From IMG/VR virus record IMGVR_UViG_3300031841_002694, positions 1 through 40,716 of that record: a stretch of 40,716 bases of DNA; one strand, written 5' to 3'. The stretch's first letter is position 1; every line of letters begins with the position of its first letter. The position numbers and the translations under genes were made by a program. This document shows positions 9,765-26,693 of the stretch, one piece after another. The notes beneath the pieces were generated by a model. That model was given only the letters and a program-made list of their open reading frames with translations, searched no databases and was not told where the DNA came from. Source of the DNA: a virus (taxonomy: Duplodnaviria; Caudoviricetes).

Positions 9765-10982
9765 ATGAGTGGTTTTTACGAAACGATAAGTACCAACACT
9801 GTAGTAGAGGCGGCAGAAGCCGATGCCCTAGCATCTAAGAATGCGGCTTCAGTATCTGAATCTAACGCGGCTACATCAGCGGCTAATGCGGCTACATCTG
9901 CTATTAATGCCGCCACGTCAGCAACCAATGCCGCAAATTCTGCTGGTTCTGTAACAGCGAGCGTTCAATCAGCGGCTAACGATGCGGCATCAGCACTTGC
10001 ATCAAAAAATGCGGCTGAGACAGCGAAAACAAATGCTGAAACAGCGGAAACAAATGCTGAAACAGCGGAAACAAATGCGGCATCGTCTGCAACGTCTGCG
10101 GCAACATCTGCCACCAATGCCGCGTCATCCGAATCTTCTGTTGCGGCAAACGCTTCTGCCGCATCCACTTCAGAGAGCAACGCGGCATCAAGTGCATCGT
10201 CTGCATCGACATCAGCGGCAACCGCGACAACTAAAGCGGCTGAAGCCGCTACATCTGCATCAAACGCTTCGACCTCAGAAACTAATGCGGCATCAAGCGC
10301 ATCATCAGCATCGGCATCGGAGACATCTGCACTTGCATCAAAAAATGCGGCATCTACATCAGAATCAAATGCGGCTACGTCAGAGGCAAATGCGGCTACG
10401 TCAGCAACAAATGCGGCTTCATCAGCCACAGCGTCATCAAACAGCGCATCATCAGCCACAACCGCTCAGTCAGCGGCAGAAGCGGCAAGAGATGCCGCAT
10501 TAGCGGCATTTGATTCGTTTGATGATCGGTATTTAGGTCAGAAAGCGTCAAACCCGTCTACCGACAATGATGGCAACCCACTTGTTGCAGGTACCTTGGT
10601 GTTCAACACCACGACAGATGAGATGAAAGTTTATGACGGTAGCGCGTGGTTAAACGCATACGCATCGCTATCAGGAGCATTAATAGCAACTAGTAACTTA
10701 TCTGATCTGAACAATGTCGGCACAGCCAGATCAAACTTGGGGTTAGGCACTGCCGCTACGACAGACGCAAGTGCATACGCCACCGCCGCTCAAGCTGATC
10801 AGACTGTCGCACTAACAGGCGCAGGGGCTACTAGCATATCTGGTACATACCCCAACTTCACGATCACCAGTACCGACACTGTTTATTCGTTACCATCTAA
10901 TGTTGGAACACAATCTGTTGTCACGACAGCACCAACAAGTGCGAGTGGCTTTGCTAACGGACACGTTTGGTATGTGGTCTAG
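9765..10982 (+). CDS. Tail fibre protein with Ala/Ser-rich coiled coil
   Basis: AATSATN heptads, FDDRYLG, NLSDL..ARSNLGLG fibre motifs. Confidence 0.8.
   Translation: MSGFYETISTNTVVEAAEADALASKNAASVSESNAATSAANAATSAINAATSATNAANSAGSVTASVQSAANDAASALASKNAAETAKTNAETAETNAETAETNAASSATSAATSATNAASSESSVAANASAASTSESNAASSASSASTSAATATTKAAEAATSASNASTSETNAASSASSASASETSALASKNAASTSESNAATSEANAATSATNAASSATASSNSASSATTAQSAAEAARDAALAAFDSFDDRYLGQKASNPSTDNDGNPLVAGTLVFNTTTDEMKVYDGSAWLNAYASLSGALIATSNLSDLNNVGTARSNLGLGTAATTDASAYATAAQADQTVALTGAGATSISGTYPNFTITSTDTVYSLPSNVGTQSVVTTAPTSASGFANGHVWYVV
10027..10078 (+). repeat. 21-bp in-frame tandem repeat (2.5 copies, one heptad each)
   Basis: AAACAAATGCTGAAACAGCGG x2 plus a partial copy. 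Confidence 0.9.
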
Positions 10983-10991
10983 GTCGCTATT

Positions 10992-12191
10992 GTGTCTATT
11001 AAGGTTAACGACAGCGGTACTTTAAAAGACCCAACCCAGATTTTTGTAAAAGGGGATCAGGGGACGCTTTACGGCGTTAACTATGTGGTCGCTAACAATA
11101 ACGGTACGTTAGCTACTGTCTGGAATGCCGTTTATAGCACTAGCCGCAATACCTCGACAGCGCACTCTACGACTACCTCTTTCAACACAACCACTACGTA
11201 CACAACCACGTTCGCCACAGGAACATCTCGCGCTACTACGACTAGCTACACCACCTCGTACAACACGAGTCGTGCTACAGGGACTTCGAGAGCCACTACG
11301 ACTTCGTACAACACAAGTCGCGGTACTTCTCGCGCTACAACTACGAGTTACACAACTTCCTACAACACTAGTCGAGCCACAGGCACTTCGAGAAGCACCA
11401 CCACCAGTTGGACTACGACTTACGGAACGTCACGTGGAACATCTCGCGGAACAGCCAAAACGACTAGTTGGACTACAAGTTGGACTACTTATTGGAGTAG
11501 CACCACAAGGCAACCGTCTTCAGGTGAATACTATGGCGGTGCGCCCCCGCTTTACTCAGGCACTTACTATTACTGGGTTGTCGGCGGCAATTGCTATTGG
11601 GCGGGTAGCCACGTTTTCACATCTGGTTCTTCAAACACCTCTCAGACAGCAGGAGGATGGACTTATTACCGTGGTTCGCACAGGTACACGTACTACGGGG
11701 CTTATCACGGCATTTATAGAACCACAAGCTCCTCTCATTCACGTGGCACATCTCGCGGCACAAGCCGTAGCACTACTAAGACGACTAGTTGGACAACGTA
11801 CTTTAATACGTCACGCGGAACTTCTAGATCGACTACTACTTCGTTTAACACGACAACTACTTTTGGAACATCTCGCGGCACTTCTAAAAGCACCACCACC
11901 AGTTGGACAACAACATACGGTACAAGTCGAAGCACAACGACATCGTTCAACACTACAACTACGTTTGGAACATCGCATGGAACAAGCCACAGCACGACTA
12001 CAGCGTTTAACACCAACACTACGCGCTCCACTAGCCATGCAACAGGCACTAGTCGGGCGACAACGACAAGTCAAGACACTGTAACAGTCGTATACGAGAG
12101 GCTGACCGCAACTGGAAATCAAACCGAAGTTACCAGTGGAAGCGCACATAACGGTCGATATTGGGATGGGTCGCAATGGACGGAAGATTAA
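10992..12191 (+). CDS. Thr/Ser-rich fibre-tip protein with mirror-complementary arms and a central aromatic knob
   Basis: 399 aa; TSR/TTTSF repeats at residues ~50-168 and 251-361 flank a Tyr/Trp/Gly-rich domain; follows the fibre gene. Confidence 0.75.
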   Translation: MSIKVNDSGTLKDPTQIFVKGDQGTLYGVNYVVANNNGTLATVWNAVYSTSRNTSTAHSTTTSFNTTTTYTTTFATGTSRATTTSYTTSYNTSRATGTSRATTTSYNTSRGTSRATTTSYTTSYNTSRATGTSRSTTTSWTTTYGTSRGTSRGTAKTTSWTTSWTTYWSSTTRQPSSGEYYGGAPPLYSGTYYYWVVGGNCYWAGSHVFTSGSSNTSQTAGGWTYYRGSHRYTYYGAYHGIYRTTSSSHSRGTSRGTSRSTTKTTSWTTYFNTSRGTSRSTTTSFNTTTTFGTSRGTSKSTTTSWTTTYGTSRSTTTSFNTTTTFGTSHGTSHSTTTAFNTNTTRSTSHATGTSRATTTSQDTVTVVYERLTATGNQTEVTSGSAHNGRYWDGSQWTED

Positions 12192-12331
12192 TGAGCCAAC
12201 AAGCCATGAACGAAAAACTTGAAAATGCTCTAGAAATTATTATGGAGCATTTTAGTGAAACCGAAGATCGAATAGCTGACCTTGAAGACGAGGTTTTGAG
12301 GCTACGAGATGAGCTTGAAGAAACTCGCTGA
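12191..12331 (+). CDS. 46-aa acidic coiled-coil protein (absent from the ORF track)
   Basis: MSQQAMNEKLENALEIIMEHFSETEDRIADLEDEVLRLRDELEETR; TAATG coupling to the upstream gene. Confidence 0.7.
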   Translation: MSQQAMNEKLENALEIIMEHFSETEDRIADLEDEVLRLRDELEETR

Positions 12332-13211
12332 CAATGACGAGCTAGGTAACTCCGTTGCCCATTTTTTCAAATCTGGAAACGTGTTGCGGAGTAAGGCTAA
12401 CGACAAGCTATCGGAGCTTAAATTTCTTTTGCCAGAGAAAGGGCTTAACGGAACGAAAATTGAGTATGACGTTTGGTATGACTTTTCAAGCGACAAACGA
12501 ATTCACGGATATGTGTATACAGATGTCCTAACGCAGTTTTTATATCTGCGAGTGGCAAGCAGTGTGTGGGCGACAAAAGCGATGCTCAAAGCCGCTAACA
12601 CTAGCGTCACAGAAGAAGGTGAACAGATTTTCGCTGAAATGGCGAAAAACAGTAGAGATAAGTACCGCCTTAGAAAAAAAGATTCTACGCACGAATACGT
12701 CATCTTTCTGGCAGGGACTAACATTTTAAATAAGGTTACTGATTGGGAAAAAGTGAATAAGGCGGTTGAACAGGGTGCAAAACTAAAATGTCACCCCCTC
12801 ACAGCCGCACCTGCATATCAGCATCTAGTACATAAATACGGTGACGCTGTGCTTGAAAAGAAAGCGTCAGGGCATGAGCTTTTAAACAATGCATCGATAG
12901 TTGGCTGTTGCGATAACAGTGAAATGGGTATGGCCGCACTTGCGAAAGGTAAAACGGTGCATAGGTTTGGGAAAGACTCTGAGTGGTGTACCTACAGCGC
13001 GATTTACAGGGCGTTATTGGATAAAGGCGGGTTAAGCCAAGAAAAGCTGAAAGCAATTTTGTCTTGCAAGGATTCAGGACTTATACCTGCAAGCATTGAC
13101 AATCCCCATGAACGGATTGATCGATTTTTTTTGCAGTACCGTGGGGAGGAACACGTTGCGCCTAAAAATTTTAGTGGTCGAGTGCAACAAGCTAACCGCG
13201 TTAACGGTTAA
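12309..13211 (+). CDS. KpsC/KpsS (Capsule_synth)-like glycosyltransferase
   Basis: KCHP motif followed by ELL..A.IV...NSEMGMAALAKGKTV..FG pattern. Confidence 0.6.
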   Translation: MSLKKLADNDELGNSVAHFFKSGNVLRSKANDKLSELKFLLPEKGLNGTKIEYDVWYDFSSDKRIHGYVYTDVLTQFLYLRVASSVWATKAMLKAANTSVTEEGEQIFAEMAKNSRDKYRLRKKDSTHEYVIFLAGTNILNKVTDWEKVNKAVEQGAKLKCHPLTAAPAYQHLVHKYGDAVLEKKASGHELLNNASIVGCCDNSEMGMAALAKGKTVHRFGKDSEWCTYSAIYRALLDKGGLSQEKLKAILSCKDSGLIPASIDNPHERIDRFFLQYRGEEHVAPKNFSGRVQQANRVNG

Positions 13212-13863
13212 CAGTATTCGTCACAACATGCCCGATTGGGAGTATGAAGTTGTTCCGTATCAGAATGGTTTCATACAAACGGCACTGCTGAACAGTGAGG
13301 ATCTTTGCTTAGTAGTAAAGAGCGGCATCATCTTGGACATAAAAGATGGTGATCTTCCTGACCGATCAAAGCTTGAGCAGTACGACATATGTGTAAGTCG
13401 TGATGGGGTGTTTACAGACAGCCCCACCAGTAGACATATATATGGATTAATCGGTTGTCCTTTAAATGAAAAGGCTATGGATTTATCGATCTTTTGTATA
13501 AATCCGAAACGATGGGTGCGGATACCTGACTCAGACACAGGGGTTCTGTCACGGGTAAAGCGGCTACGAATGCCACGCCACATGAACCACAAATGTGACC
13601 CTATTGTCGCTAAAGCTATAAGTGCGAGGGAGGCTATTAATTACGGAATGCTTGCAGAAAAAGCCTCTGCACTAAATTACATCCCTGTGTTTGAGCGGGG
13701 GAAGGTAAACGGTAATGAGATGTTTGCCTACGCGCTTGAGAAGGCTATTCCGTTCTTAGACGGTTTACCATCGGAGGAGATGAGCACAGTAGAGGCTATA
13801 GGGCGCAGAACTGAAAAGAACGTATCTAAATTAAGAGTTAGATTAGCAAACATATTTTTATAG
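13156..13863 (+). CDS. Divergent GT-A fold (GT8-like) glycosyltransferase-like protein
   Basis: TTG after GGAGG; TVNSIRHNMP, DLSIFCINPKRW and MPRHMN patterns; no canonical DxD. Confidence 0.45.
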   Translation: MRLKILVVECNKLTALTVNSIRHNMPDWEYEVVPYQNGFIQTALLNSEDLCLVVKSGIILDIKDGDLPDRSKLEQYDICVSRDGVFTDSPTSRHIYGLIGCPLNEKAMDLSIFCINPKRWVRIPDSDTGVLSRVKRLRMPRHMNHKCDPIVAKAISAREAINYGMLAEKASALNYIPVFERGKVNGNEMFAYALEKAIPFLDGLPSEEMSTVEAIGRRTEKNVSKLRVRLANIFL

Positions 13864-13873
13864 GAGAACACCA

Positions 13874-14236
13874 ATGCACATTGATTACACAGCCAGTATT
13901 GATCAAACAAAAGTTATCCCTGAACAGGGGGGCTTTGAAAATATAGTCAAAAAAGTCATTTGGGAAATAACTTTTTTCGACACAGAAAACCCTGAATCCG
14001 TCCAGAGTGTTGCGCGGGTCGAAACATTTTTAGACACCGATTCGATAAATGCTGATACTTTCGTTCAGTGGGAGTCGCTTACTCAACAAAGCGTATTGCA
14101 GAAGTGCCTAGACAGTCATGGCGGCACTGCATTTTTGGACGAGCTTTTAAACAACGGCCATCACCAGATGTTGGAACAAAAGCTGACGGAGCTGTCTTTG
14201 GTTGAAAAAAGCGCGGATTTGCTTGCCGTAGAATGA
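13874..14236 (+). CDS. Tail-region accessory protein (possible fibre chaperone)
   Basis: AGGAG RBS; NIVKKVIW...FVQWESLT pattern seen next to phage fibre genes. Confidence 0.6.
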   Translation: MHIDYTASIDQTKVIPEQGGFENIVKKVIWEITFFDTENPESVQSVARVETFLDTDSINADTFVQWESLTQQSVLQKCLDSHGGTAFLDELLNNGHHQMLEQKLTELSLVEKSADLLAVE

Positions 14237-14820
14237 AAATAACGGCCAAGACAAAAGCGGATAAGCATTTTTACCCGCCAAACCCGTTGGAGGGGCGGGA
14301 TATCCCAAAGTGGGGCTCTGTTTATGATTTTATGAGGTGGTGGCATGACGAGGGCTGTCCAATGATGCCGCCAGATAACGTCATAACCTGTACTGACGAT
14401 GCGACTTCTATCTCATTGTTTAGGTGTGGGCAGTTCCAAGTCGAACTGTACTTAATTCACCCTAGTCCTAACTTGCCTATCCATGAGCACCCAGATGTAG
14501 AGGTCATAAAACTGAGATTGGACAGCTACCAATTTGCTGATGGACAGTTTCGCAATCTAACTGATTGCTCTAGCTCAAAGACACTTTTGCAGGGAGAAAG
14601 CCACGGGGCAGGGATAAATTTTAAAGAGCAAGAAAACGGTATGCCAACGGGGTTTTCCTTGTTGGCGTTCCAGAAATGGAAAGACGGTTTGAAAGTTACC
14701 ACTGTGGCTTCACGTTGGAAGGGCAAAACTGTCGGTGGAAAACAAGAGAAATTGATTAAAAAACTAGTGCCTACAGCGATTGTGCGCGAAGGGTACGCAG
14801 ACACAACAGGAGCGCCATGA
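14233..14820 (+). CDS. Cupin-fold protein (putative dioxygenase/isomerase)
   Basis: FQVELY...PIHEHPDVE...HG metal-binding pattern. Confidence 0.65.
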   Translation: MKITAKTKADKHFYPPNPLEGRDIPKWGSVYDFMRWWHDEGCPMMPPDNVITCTDDATSISLFRCGQFQVELYLIHPSPNLPIHEHPDVEVIKLRLDSYQFADGQFRNLTDCSSSKTLLQGESHGAGINFKEQENGMPTGFSLLAFQKWKDGLKVTTVASRWKGKTVGGKQEKLIKKLVPTAIVREGYADTTGAP

Positions 14821-15542
14821 TGTTTTTAAGTCGTAAACACAAACTGATATTTATCTCGATCCCACGGACGGGATCAAACGCTGTGCATCACGCACTGATA
14901 AATTCTGATTTAAGGTCTGAGGATGACATAATTCATACACTGTTTAACCCCTCAGTAGATGTGTTCTTCACGCCTAGTCAGTCAAAAATAACCAAGTTTC
15001 ATATGACCCCCCAACAGATAGTTGATTCGGGCTTGATCACCAAAGATGAACTTAGCGAATATAAAATGTTCGCTTTCATACGCGAACCCAAAAGACGTTG
15101 GTTGTCAGCGTTCTTTATGGGCATTGGTCACTTTGCACAGTTCGGAGTTGAAACTTTAGAACAAATGACCAGAGTGATAAGAAATGACGATCTTTGGTCT
15201 AGGTACTTCGGCACTGGAGAACCCACAAGCAAGCCGTTTTCTGGTGAGAGATACGGTTTTGAAGACTTCCTATACAAAAACTACCTTTTCGTAGATGGCG
15301 AGAAAGTTGTTGAGACATACCGTTATGAGAACATGGCTGAAATCCTACACGCGCTGATAGCGGATAAAACAGGGGTTACGTCTGACGTACAGCTTCAGCA
15401 CGTACAGATGCACTCGCGTGGAGTCCCTGAAGCCTTTGAAAATCCAATGTCTGATTGGATGCCAAGCGATTGCCTAGCTAAGTTAGAAACCTACTTGGAG
15501 CAAGACAGGTCGTTCTATGATGAGGCACGTCTGAGCTATTGA
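14817..15542 (+). CDS. Sulfotransferase (Sulfotransfer_2-like)
   Basis: 5'-PSB-like FISIPRTGS and 3'-PB-like FIREP.RR.LS motifs. Confidence 0.8.
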   Translation: MMFLSRKHKLIFISIPRTGSNAVHHALINSDLRSEDDIIHTLFNPSVDVFFTPSQSKITKFHMTPQQIVDSGLITKDELSEYKMFAFIREPKRRWLSAFFMGIGHFAQFGVETLEQMTRVIRNDDLWSRYFGTGEPTSKPFSGERYGFEDFLYKNYLFVDGEKVVETYRYENMAEILHALIADKTGVTSDVQLQHVQMHSRGVPEAFENPMSDWMPSDCLAKLETYLEQDRSFYDEARLSY

Positions 15543-24228: not shown

Positions 24229-25344
24229 GTGGGAATGCTTGGCGTTGTTTCTAAAGCCTTAGAAGAGGGGCGTAAAAAGATCAGAGCCTATCACGGCTCT
24301 CCGCACGACTTTGACAGATTCTCTACTGACAACATCGGCACTGGCGAGGGCGCACAGGCGTATGGTCGTGGCCTTTATTTTGCGGAGCGTGAAGGTACGG
24401 CTCAAAGCTATAAAGGAAGCACCAACTACGCAGACAAGAAAAGACAATTTCAAAATGAACTACCTGATGACGCTGACATAGACGAAGTAATGTATATGAA
24501 CAGGCAGGGTTCATTTTCTCCAGAAATGACAGAACTTTTAGACGCGCTTGAAGAAGATGACTTTTTAGGTTTCGACTACCCATCACAAGCAATCACTGCC
24601 GCTTTTGGTAGAAACCTTACAGACTATGATCCTTCGCCTCGTTTGTTAAAAGCTATAGATAGCGGTCATATGTACGAAGTGAATATAAATGCTTCGCCAG
24701 ACGAGTTGCTTGATTACGATCTACCTTTAAGTGAACAAAGTGATTTTGTAAAAAGCAGACTACCGAAGGAGTTGTTAGATAGGGAGGGTGCGAGAGGTAT
24801 CAACGCTGTAAAAGACTTTCCGATACCAAACTCAGAGATGATGAGCAATGCTGATTACAGTCAAAAAGCGGCAGATGCACTACAAGAGTCTGGCATTAAA
24901 GGTGTAAAGTATGCCGATGCTCAGACTCGGTTCTCTCCAAAAGGTAAAACACACAACTACGTTGTCTTTGATGACAAGCTAGTAGAAATAGCTCGTAAGT
25001 ACGGTGTGACGATGCCAGTGGCGGGGGCAATTCTTGCGGGGACAATGACACCGGAACAGGCACAAGCGGGTGTTGTCACACCGCAAAAAGATGGTATTTT
25101 AAAAGACACGAGCGATGTTGCGCTTGAAACTGTGTCGGGTATCAACCGCGCAGTGGTAGACGGTTTAAACTTCTTCACAGCCGATCAGGTAAACAATGTT
25201 TTAAACCTTGTGGGAAGCGATAAGCGTATACCTAACCTGTATGATGTACCTTATATAAAGGAAGCAACACAGGGTAACTATATGGATGATGGGCTACCCA
25301 GAGATGTTGTGCGTACCGGAAGTGAATTTTTATCTCCGTTATAA
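24229..25344 (+). CDS. ADP-ribosyltransferase-like (ART-PolyVal-like) domain protein
   Basis: AYHGS..FD.F...GTGEGAQAYG.GLYFA and GI.G..Y.D...NYVVFD motifs. Confidence 0.6.
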   Translation: MGMLGVVSKALEEGRKKIRAYHGSPHDFDRFSTDNIGTGEGAQAYGRGLYFAEREGTAQSYKGSTNYADKKRQFQNELPDDADIDEVMYMNRQGSFSPEMTELLDALEEDDFLGFDYPSQAITAAFGRNLTDYDPSPRLLKAIDSGHMYEVNINASPDELLDYDLPLSEQSDFVKSRLPKELLDREGARGINAVKDFPIPNSEMMSNADYSQKAADALQESGIKGVKYADAQTRFSPKGKTHNYVVFDDKLVEIARKYGVTMPVAGAILAGTMTPEQAQAGVVTPQKDGILKDTSDVALETVSGINRAVVDGLNFFTADQVNNVLNLVGSDKRIPNLYDVPYIKEATQGNYMDDGLPRDVVRTGSEFLSPL

Positions 25345-25657
25345 CTGTACCAAAACTGTACCATCGCATTATAAGTCATTGATTTATAGAGTAGTTGCTA
25401 CTATCGAGCATGGGAGCTACACAAAATTTCCTGTTAATTTTCAATAACTTAGCCTTATCGTTCCTAATTTTAATACATTTTAAATAATTCTATAACTCGT
25501 TGATTTATAACGATTTATACTTTATTAGCATTTTAAATATTTTTAGAACTGTACCACAAACTGCACCAAAATTAATAGTCAATTATTACTTGTATCCGTT
25601 GTATTTCCTAGCGTAAAACATATAATTGACATTTAAACATAAAACAAAGGTGTACCA
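25343..25657. mobile_element. attP region: arm-type repeats, IHF sites, dusA-like core
   Basis: AACTG(T/C)ACCA at 25343, 25354, 25547, 25559 and TGTACCA at 25651; IHF-like boxes near 25372, 25438, 25493; AT-rich. Confidence 0.85.
25403..25444 (-). other. Replacement 5' end of host dusA (MKINRKFCVAPMLD) within attP
   Basis: TTG start after AAGG; FCVAPMLD matches the conserved DusA N-terminus; similarity ends after D. Confidence 0.85.
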
Positions 25658-25658
25658 A

Positions 25659-26693
25659 ATGGGCATAATTCAGAAACGTGAAGGCAAATCTGGGGTAGCA
25701 AGCTACAGGGTTTTGATCAGACGCGCAGGAAGCCCCTCAATAAGTAAAAGTTTTAAAAAGAAAGCATTAGCTAAGGCGTGGATGGCCGCCACAGAAAACG
25801 CACTGGACACTGATTCATTTCGAGAAGATAAAACGCTTTTTAAAGCAATGATTGATAGGTACGTTGCTGAAATAGGGCAGATCAAACCTTTTGGTCGAAC
25901 AAAAAAATACGTCATTGACGCTCTCAGAGTCGCGTTGGGTCATTATGAACTTAAAGAATTAACCGCTGACGTGCTTATGGATTTTGCGTTACGCAGGAGA
26001 TTAGATTGCTGTCCTAGCACGGTTAAAATGGATATGCAGTACATTGGCGTGGTTTTATCTACCGCTGAAAACATGTGGGGTTTGAAGCCTAAGTTCGATG
26101 AGTACCGCAAGGCTATGGATAACTGCGTTAACTTACAGGTAATTGCATCTAGCGATGAGCGAGATCGCCGATGCTCAGACGAGGAAATCAGTGAGATTCT
26201 GGCAAACGTCAGTTCTGCCCTGCCTGTCGCTGAGTGGGTAAAATTTTCTTTGGCAACAGCGATGCGCGTGGGGGAGATTGGGTCGTTGCGTTGGAAAGAT
26301 TTAAGCAAGGACGGTAAAAGCATAATAATACGTCAGAGAAAGCACCCCCGTAAAAAACGCGATGAGGTTGTCCCACTGGTTCCAGAGGCGCGTGAAATTA
26401 TATCTCGACAACCCATATCCATTAAATCGCCTGATCTTATCTTCCCGCACAACCCAAAATCTATTACTGCGGCATTCCGCAAGGGTAGAGAACGATCAAG
26501 CGTTGAGGATTTGCGGTATCACGATCTGCGACACGAGGCCATATCACGGCTTTTTGAGCTAGGGTTTGACAGTATGGTAGTCGCAACCTTTAGTGGGCAT
26601 AGAAATATTAACATGCTCAGACGATACACGCATATCAACGCTAACAAGGTGCTAAACATACTCGAAGAGCAGAGCAGGAGAAAAGCATCATAA
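25659..26693 (+). CDS. int: Tyrosine integrase, dusA-associated type
   Basis: Catalytic R (TAMR), K, HDLRH, SGH, RRY; ATG after AAGGTG; adjacent dusA-like attP. Confidence 0.95.
   Translation: MGIIQKREGKSGVASYRVLIRRAGSPSISKSFKKKALAKAWMAATENALDTDSFREDKTLFKAMIDRYVAEIGQIKPFGRTKKYVIDALRVALGHYELKELTADVLMDFALRRRLDCCPSTVKMDMQYIGVVLSTAENMWGLKPKFDEYRKAMDNCVNLQVIASSDERDRRCSDEEISEILANVSSALPVAEWVKFSLATAMRVGEIGSLRWKDLSKDGKSIIIRQRKHPRKKRDEVVPLVPEAREIISRQPISIKSPDLIFPHNPKSITAAFRKGRERSSVEDLRYHDLRHEAISRLFELGFDSMVVATFSGHRNINMLRRYTHINANKVLNILEEQSRRKAS

Follow-up and report, generated by a model that had tools for sequence, protein, structure and literature searches.

How two distant arms of a single gene can expand in step, without symmetry in the DNA that encodes them, is the evolutionary question raised by a threonine-rich gene of a tailed marine phage. 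The window analysed here, the whole stretch of 40,716 nucleotides, is a complete 40.7-kb virus record (IMGVR_UViG_3300031841_002694) which encodes an SU10-type portal, capsid and adaptor, plus a DNA polymerase A module and an integrase. The SU10-type adaptor gene is followed by an Ala/Ser-rich tail fibre and then by the gene under study, referred to as the hairpin gene after the fold proposed for its product, a 399-residue protein containing 120 Thr and 65 Ser (30% and 16%). The SU10 adaptor, gp11, bears long fibres built from trimers of gp12 and gp13, and the genes numbered after it encode the long tail fibres, proximal and distal (PMC9509320). Because the SU10 adaptor carries the gp12/gp13 fibres, the hairpin gene can be assigned to the distal-fibre slot. 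Its components, with the evidence that delimits them, are the following:

10992..12191, + strand: self-complementary Thr-rich protein gene, 399 aa, GTG start (homologues)
10992..11144, + strand: conserved N-cap, residues 1-51, three short beta-hairpin-like repeats (conservation; residues 1-38 modelled)
11145..11495, + strand: outgoing arm, residues 52-168 (register and null tests)
11496..11741, + strand: hypervariable Gly/Tyr/Trp-rich central head, residues 169-250, at the predicted hairpin tip (identity and model)
11742..12092, + strand: returning arm, residues 251-367, complementary to the outgoing arm at i+j=419 (register and null tests)
12093..12191, + strand: conserved C-cap, residues 368-399, with a Trp-Asp-Gly hairpin at its end (adjoins the N-cap in register)

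The hairpin protein gave no significant match in Pfam, PHROG, NCBIfam or PDB sequences, and no match was retrieved from deposited phages by tblastn with the query and one protein of a second type (low-complexity filter on). The ESM Atlas returned three viral clusters, all below 0.9. In four seawater runs, belonging to two studies, contig pieces span parts of the gene with no differing letters listed, and no RNA data set carrying it was among those listed. Elsewhere in the window a tyrosine integrase (25626-26693) makes it likely that the phage is temperate, and a protein with a weak ART-PolyVal N-terminal match (24229-25344) lies among ejection-type genes.

Complementarity of the two arms

The starting point was an earlier note on this DNA, which had listed 24 facing pairs of residues at a constant i+j=419, 22 of them aromatic opposite basic. 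All residue identities and sums proved correct and the 22 aromatic-basic pairs were recovered from the arms, the next-best registers reaching 10; the query arms contain one like-like pair, K156-K263. The stem is slightly longer than first claimed, extending from about R52-V367 to W168-R251 (117 rungs). When the shuffle test proposed in that note was run, 22 pairs were reached in none of 20,000 trials of each of four nulls: the maximum was 11 upon shuffling of residues, 14 upon shuffling of modules, 20 upon shuffling of blocks of 2-3 modules and 21 (mean 11.9) when aromatic/basic identity was permuted with the spacing kept. Rather than the regular period and parallel stacking that are the hallmark of a beta-solenoid, the arms show an aperiodic 4/6 spacing, and their best parallel register scores 10 versus 22 for the antiparallel one.

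The claim that no DNA inverted repeat matches the arms was likewise upheld, since only two inverted pairs of 12-16 nt occur in the DNA; the reverse-complement fraction between arms peaks at 37% (median 23%), at an offset that differs from the protein register. The gene does contain direct repeats. Given arms without a matching inverted repeat, the symmetry sits at the protein level, and a DNA hairpin or inverted duplication as its origin is ruled out by the inverted-repeat and arm reverse-complement tests.

Conservation of the register and of the pairing code

The homologue survey covered 32 proteins, 63 viral loci, at least 77 metagenome loci and one bacterial locus. Out of 168 candidates, 53 that were incomplete or without the anchor motif and 19 duplicates were dropped, leaving 96 distinct complete homologues. 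For each of them a register was predicted using nothing but the two terminal anchors and the offset seen in the query. The predicted register was the unique best one in 88 of the 96, so that homologues do keep one register; the other eight comprise two proteins that are one residue off, three short weak stems and three stems with bulges. Gapped alignment of each arm against the other one reversed was gap-free in 91/96, the rest being one anchor offset and four unmatched bulges of 16-34 residues. Two bulge sites lie on exact repeats of 37 and 110 nt, which may be assembly slips, and another one on a 21-nt repeat; the fourth, in L104, has no junction repeat. Complete proteins outside the anchor pattern are also coded, with 72-88 aromatic-basic versus 2-3 like pairs. 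Stem lengths range from 65 to 836 rungs. At 0.33 nm per residue this would make the stalks some 21 to 276 nm long, or less if they are coiled, and that of the query 37-42 nm; two of the proteins (L030 and L049) reach 1,408 aa. The own second arm outscored all foreign arms in only 40 of 69 proteins, a result that divides by stem length into 39/44 stems of more than 100 rungs and 1/25 shorter ones. A further protein (P0015), in which the N-cap and a short arm are fused to a porin-family domain (PF13609), is probably an assembly chimera.

The pair table was compiled from 54 representatives, with one bulged member excluded and two shifted by one residue. Among its 5,362 patterned-face rungs, 2,875 are Thr-Thr, 1,560 aromatic-basic, 14 aromatic-aromatic and 3 basic-basic, and the mutual information between facing residues amounts to 1.30 bits, versus 0.16 on the other face, which is built of S/T/A/N/G/D with less than 1% bulky residues. 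Basic residues stand opposite an aromatic one in 92% of cases, and aromatics opposite a basic residue in 75% and opposite Asn/Gln in 12%. Non-Thr rungs are spaced by 4 (1,797), 6 (1,353) or 2 (250) residues and never by more; towards the tip positive charge increases and acidic residues decrease. The cation-pi basis first suggested for the pairing agrees with the aromatic-basic rungs, but the code is wider, being mostly Thr-Thr and including aromatic-Asn/Gln rungs. Thr and aromatic cross-strand pairs at non-hydrogen-bonded sites are known to stabilise designed beta-hairpins (PMC7915549).

Changes in stem length

The compensatory aromatic/basic swaps anticipated for homologues were found: 34 full swaps occur at 1,608 aligned sites of 51 nearest-neighbour pairs, 15 of them in two distant pairs where repeat misalignment is possible, and the same sites show 6 changes to basic-basic and none to aromatic-aromatic. 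When the two arms were aligned separately, indels of identical size (e.g. -4/+18, +16, -54 or +32/+14) were obtained in 14 out of 29 hand-picked pairs of relatives, one of them being without indels; the remaining pairs matched in part or were blurred by the definition of the stem end. Length change exclusively through paired indels, as originally postulated, is thus supported by the mirrored indels and the 91/96 gap-free stems but contradicted by the unmatched bulge in 4/96, and the pairing of indels reflects strong selection rather than an absolute rule.

The sole bacterial locus, a prophage region in the SAR92 isolate H921, carries recent 60-nt tandem arrays at mirror positions of both arms (6.0 copies at 96% and 7.3 copies at 94%, with tandem runs of 309 and 313 nt at >=95% identity); its register is unbroken, with 63 aromatic-basic and 0 like pairs. 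In a tree of the linked transferase, covering 37 of 69 representatives, stem length differs between nearly identical neighbours (272 versus 400 rungs). On this view, an insertion in one arm alone would bulge out of the stem, and selection would disfavour it until a module of the same kind arose in the opposite arm.

Modularity of the protein and its gene neighbourhood

The N-cap, 88-94% identical in close relatives, is inferred to be a docking module; the C-cap has a weak DUF2510 match below the cut-off. Heads are only 22-41% identical where caps are 81-100% identical, and they range from 4 to 90 residues without shifting the register. A head is lacking from 7 of 69 representatives and from cultured Vibrio members, and is therefore not essential. 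In one protein (P0106) the same head is inserted without any stalk in another base, with a profile match of 95.9% probability, and the profile search also retrieved the same stalk, with or without head, on other bases. Such stalks and/or heads were seen in P0106, P0098, P0100, P0133 and P0041-P0053, the alternative bases being a phrog_30374-like module, a short pair of N- and C-terminal motifs and, in an inverted form, a base that lies centrally.

The hairpin gene is flanked by the following features:

9765..10982, + strand: Ala/Ser-rich tail fibre, directly after the SU10-type adaptor gene (PHROG tail fibre matches)
10902-10979, + strand: conserved motif, the last ~26 residues of the upstream fibre (precedes the hairpin gene in relatives)
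12191..12331, + strand: predicted coiled-coil gene, 46 aa, overlapping the hairpin stop codon (55/64 loci)
12309..13211, + strand: KpsC/KpsS-like (Capsule_synth, PF05159) putative CMP-sugar transferase (conserved His-Pro motif)
13096..13863, + strand: second conserved cassette gene, ~240 aa (homologous to DLP6 gp003, E 1e-5)

The terminal motif of the upstream gene was present in all 54 distinct loci with upstream DNA, on bodies that may be a collagen, a coiled coil or a domain of 76 aa. Where the hairpin is longest (640-836 rungs; L030, L033, L060 and L061), the gene before it encodes a minimal 76-aa adaptor, in which a tail-fibre N-terminal domain is joined to the putative docking motif; it looks as though the hairpin stood in for the fibre shaft.

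The transferase lies downstream in 54 of 64 loci; in the remaining 10 the available sequence stops at that point. In a search with the PF05159 profile the window protein itself gave no match and 4/17 relatives gave a weak one (best E 8e-4); in the ESM Atlas it scored 0.95, sharing 186 features with the PF05159 type. Conversely, among the best 80 transferase loci a hairpin gene lies one or two genes upstream in 66, a count biased by a query alignment that was built from hairpin loci; the other 14, and also DLP6, have the transferase with no hairpin gene next to it. Both podo-like and sipho-like contexts harbour the cassette. The second cassette gene had no significant profile or database match and by eye alone its motif looks glycosyltransferase-like; KVP40.0257, considered as a homologue, is not homologous. 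Genes for DUF7936, cupin-like and sulfotransferase proteins (13874-15542), which follow the cassette in many close relatives, are possibly further surface-modifying enzymes.

Structural modelling

AlphaFold2 gave a pLDDT of 33.7 on the single sequence and of 46.3 with a 36-row alignment, obtained from 55 candidates by dropping duplicates and automatic alignments that break the register (67% register-consistent). In the latter model residues 1-38 and 196-248 are predicted at pLDDT ~80, as beta hairpins (N-cap) and a small beta domain (head), and the stalk stays below 50. Foldseek with this model retrieved no match at E 0.001 in PDB or BFVD; the best VIA Z score was 3.2, an outcome that shows neither a new nor a different fold, and PDB sequence searches with three alignments gave nothing significant. 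The antiparallel hairpin proposed in the earlier note is therefore backed by the register of homologues, the swaps and the mirrored indels, but not by the low-confidence model of the stalk; since AlphaFold2 did not model this part, the fold rests on covariation and known strand chemistry. That both AlphaFold2 and family libraries miss the stalk suggests a blind spot in current structure prediction. Off-register peaks at ±4 follow, by reasoning only, from autocorrelation within each arm and cannot separate a ribbon from a barrel.

A fold-back ribbon and its alternatives

Taken as a whole, our data tip somewhat towards a fold-back two-stranded ribbon mounted on the upstream fibre, likely in one copy and with a variable head at its tip. 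The chain would fold back into a single antiparallel beta-ribbon of ~40 nm at most, whose joined N- and C-caps would dock on the terminal motif of the upstream trimeric tail fibre, so that the variable head, likely receptor-binding, would be held at the hairpin tip. The aperiodic code would keep such a repetitive chain from zipping out of register, much as sequence does in a nucleic-acid stem, and a glycosylated Ser/Thr stalk would shield the free strand edges. The components of this proposal differ in strength: the beta-hairpin geometry of the arms, deduced from covariation, is very probable; location in the virion, on the C-terminal motif of the upstream fibre, is probable; receptor binding by the head and the tip-ward positive charge is rather likely; the idea that the cassette enzymes glycosylate the Ser/Thr stalk is slightly favoured; and a single hairpin chain per fibre, suggested by analogy with gp38 on gp37 and based on the gene order and the three N-cap repeats, is evenly balanced. 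Similarly, we would give even chances to the broader proposal of a widespread phage architecture, a free ribbon that "base-pairs" with itself, tunable from ~20 to 275 nm, carried by several unrelated bases, glycosylated by a dedicated phage CMP-sugar transferase and extended by tandem duplications that match between two distant stretches of the gene.

The main competitor keeps the same hairpin and code but has three chains wrapped into a closed barrel of six antiparallel strands, whose lumen would be lined by the small residues and whose outside would carry the Thr and aromatic-basic rungs, thereby continuing the threefold axis of the fibre. Such a barrel would leave no backbone hydrogen bond unsatisfied even in a stem of 836 rungs, and the face nearly devoid of bulky residues fits a lumen as well as a free ribbon; the distal fibre that occupies this gene slot in SU10 is trimeric (PMC9509320), and the gp37 needle is a six-stranded antiparallel trimer (PMC9659904). 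However, the three hairpin-like repeats of the N-cap would better suit one chain capping a trimer, head and N-cap reach pLDDT ~80 when modelled as monomer, the query stalk is without His-x-His metal pairs, and the stalk has been grafted onto several unrelated bases, all of which leaves the barrel an unlikely but substantial alternative. Covariation by itself cannot distinguish pairing within a chain from pairing of arm 1 with arm 2 of another chain, as in a palindromic duplex or a domain-swapped polymer that would yield dimers or a filament in place of a hairpin, which we nonetheless regard as improbable because both conserved termini meet in register as a base, heads of 4-90 residues leave the register unshifted, and the same head exists as a stalk-less insertion in another base (P0106).

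Function could also be read differently, the stalk being a glycan scaffold, i.e. a shield, a decoy or a drag/adhesion filament on tail or capsid, and the head being incidental and not the receptor-binding end. The tight linkage to the KpsC/KpsS-like transferase, the existence of headless members and the KVP40-like cassettes apart from tail genes would fit this role, which is compatible with, rather than exclusive of, the fold-back ribbon; as the full account it is a shade less probable even than pairing between chains, given that in the query family a fibre gene with the conserved terminal motif invariably precedes the hairpin gene and that the head is as hypervariable as receptor-binding domains are. 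Lastly, the low-confidence AlphaFold2 stalk and a weak serine-rich family match far below the cut-off would be expected of mucin-like disorder or a beta-solenoid Thr/Ser repeat, the mirror being a by-product of periodicity or of an inverted DNA duplication. This is extremely improbable: the four nulls keep composition, spacing or modules, the anchors predict the register in 88/96 homologues, swaps and mirrored indels are observed and no DNA inverted repeat matches the arms, so that the artefact is effectively refuted by the anchor-register, null and swap results.

Comparison with described systems

The tip needle of T4 gp37 is a six-stranded antiparallel structure of three chains with a head at the tip (PMC9659904), corresponding to RBPseg classes TC6/TC7 (PMC12143355). 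As proposed for the hairpin protein, its chain runs out, forms a receptor-binding head and returns antiparallel at the distal end of a long tail fibre. Nevertheless, the hairpin shows no sequence or fold match to it and is a separate gene product, and the needle is short and of fixed length, whereas the hairpin code holds over 65-836 rungs with a length that varies by mirrored indels. The gp37 needle is held by metal sites of the His-x-His type. No His-x-His pairs were found in the query stalk, whose only His residues (58, 249, 329, 333 and 349) face aromatics.

A different likeness is provided by S16 gp38, a single adhesin that caps trimeric gp37 (PMC6851490). Both it and the hairpin protein are small products of a gene of their own, which lies behind that of a trimeric fibre, and in both the attaching end is conserved and the far end hypervariable. 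By this analogy, the hairpin protein would likely follow the same 1:3 logic. The adhesin attaches through three helices with three Trp and is built of a beta-helix and a polyglycine sandwich (PMC6851490); in contrast, both termini of the hairpin protein contribute predicted beta-hairpin repeats to its cap, and a hairpin stalk would make up its body. The N-cap is modelled as hairpins with one Trp in residues 1-51, in place of a three-Trp helical attachment, no glycine-rich motifs or Gly_rich match were found in the query, and no homology between gp38 and the hairpin protein was detected. SU10 (Kuravirus) gp13 shares the slot after capsid, adaptor and proximal fibre, but it is a trimer and bears no similarity to the hairpin protein in the phage collection. 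Designed beta-hairpins such as tryptophan zippers share Thr/aromatic cross-strand pairs on one face (PMC7915549), although they are short synthetic peptides and the hairpin code is natural, evolving and hundreds of rungs long. The cassette transferase resembles PF05159 enzymes by a weak Pfam and a strong ESM-feature match and by its His-Pro motif. Known members of PF05159 extend glycolipid or capsule sugars, unlike the protein acceptor that we propose, from sequence, for the cassette enzyme.

No description of the hairpin code was found in the literature listings, abstracts and databases searched. The main text of the RBPseg fibre atlas does not contain "hairpin", "antiparallel", "threonine" or "ribbon" (PMC12143355), nor does the Lullwater-like phage paper contain "threonine" or "glycosyl" (PMC11053796), and passages from a further article add nothing on the hairpin (PMC5537660). 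As far as searched, the hairpin would therefore represent a new protein architecture, strong at the sequence level and structurally unproven. If correct, it would provide a new fibrous fold whose antiparallel strands pair by a rule that can be read from sequence, as the heptad pattern can in coiled coils, with thousands of natural rungs as training data. A natural beta-zipper of this kind, programmable like a nucleic-acid stem, would also allow phages of dilute marine hosts to tune their reach cheaply over an order of magnitude.

Members in cultured phages

Following the linked transferase led us to deposited phages, and coded hairpins were identified in the cultured phages KVP40, VH1_2019, VS2, D479, F86 and Lullwater, which makes the architecture testable. 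The numbers of aromatic-basic and like pairs are 9/0 for KVP40.0254, 10/0 for VS2, 13/0 for D479, 11/0 for F86 and 10/2 for Lullwater gp41; these hairpins are closed by a tight turn and have module-shuffle p values of at most 2/5000. In KVP40-like phages the cassette lies apart from the tail genes. The Caulobacter phages BL198/DCM carry a Thr-rich gene with no clean register, and the gene of Quill is shorter, with most of the second arm missing. The Stenotrophomonas phage DLP6 has the cassette enzymes and no hairpin in the stretch examined; an unannotated open frame of 550 codons at its genome start (L143:3-1655), directly before the coiled-coil and transferase genes, ends in a sequence that resembles a Hint-type domain. 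In the Vibrio phage D479 (L232:1106-1620, + strand) and in F86 (L233:1055-1620, + strand) the Thr-rich hairpin ORFs are unannotated; in both of them two Cys flank the tight turn, and the coiled-coil and transferase genes lie downstream.
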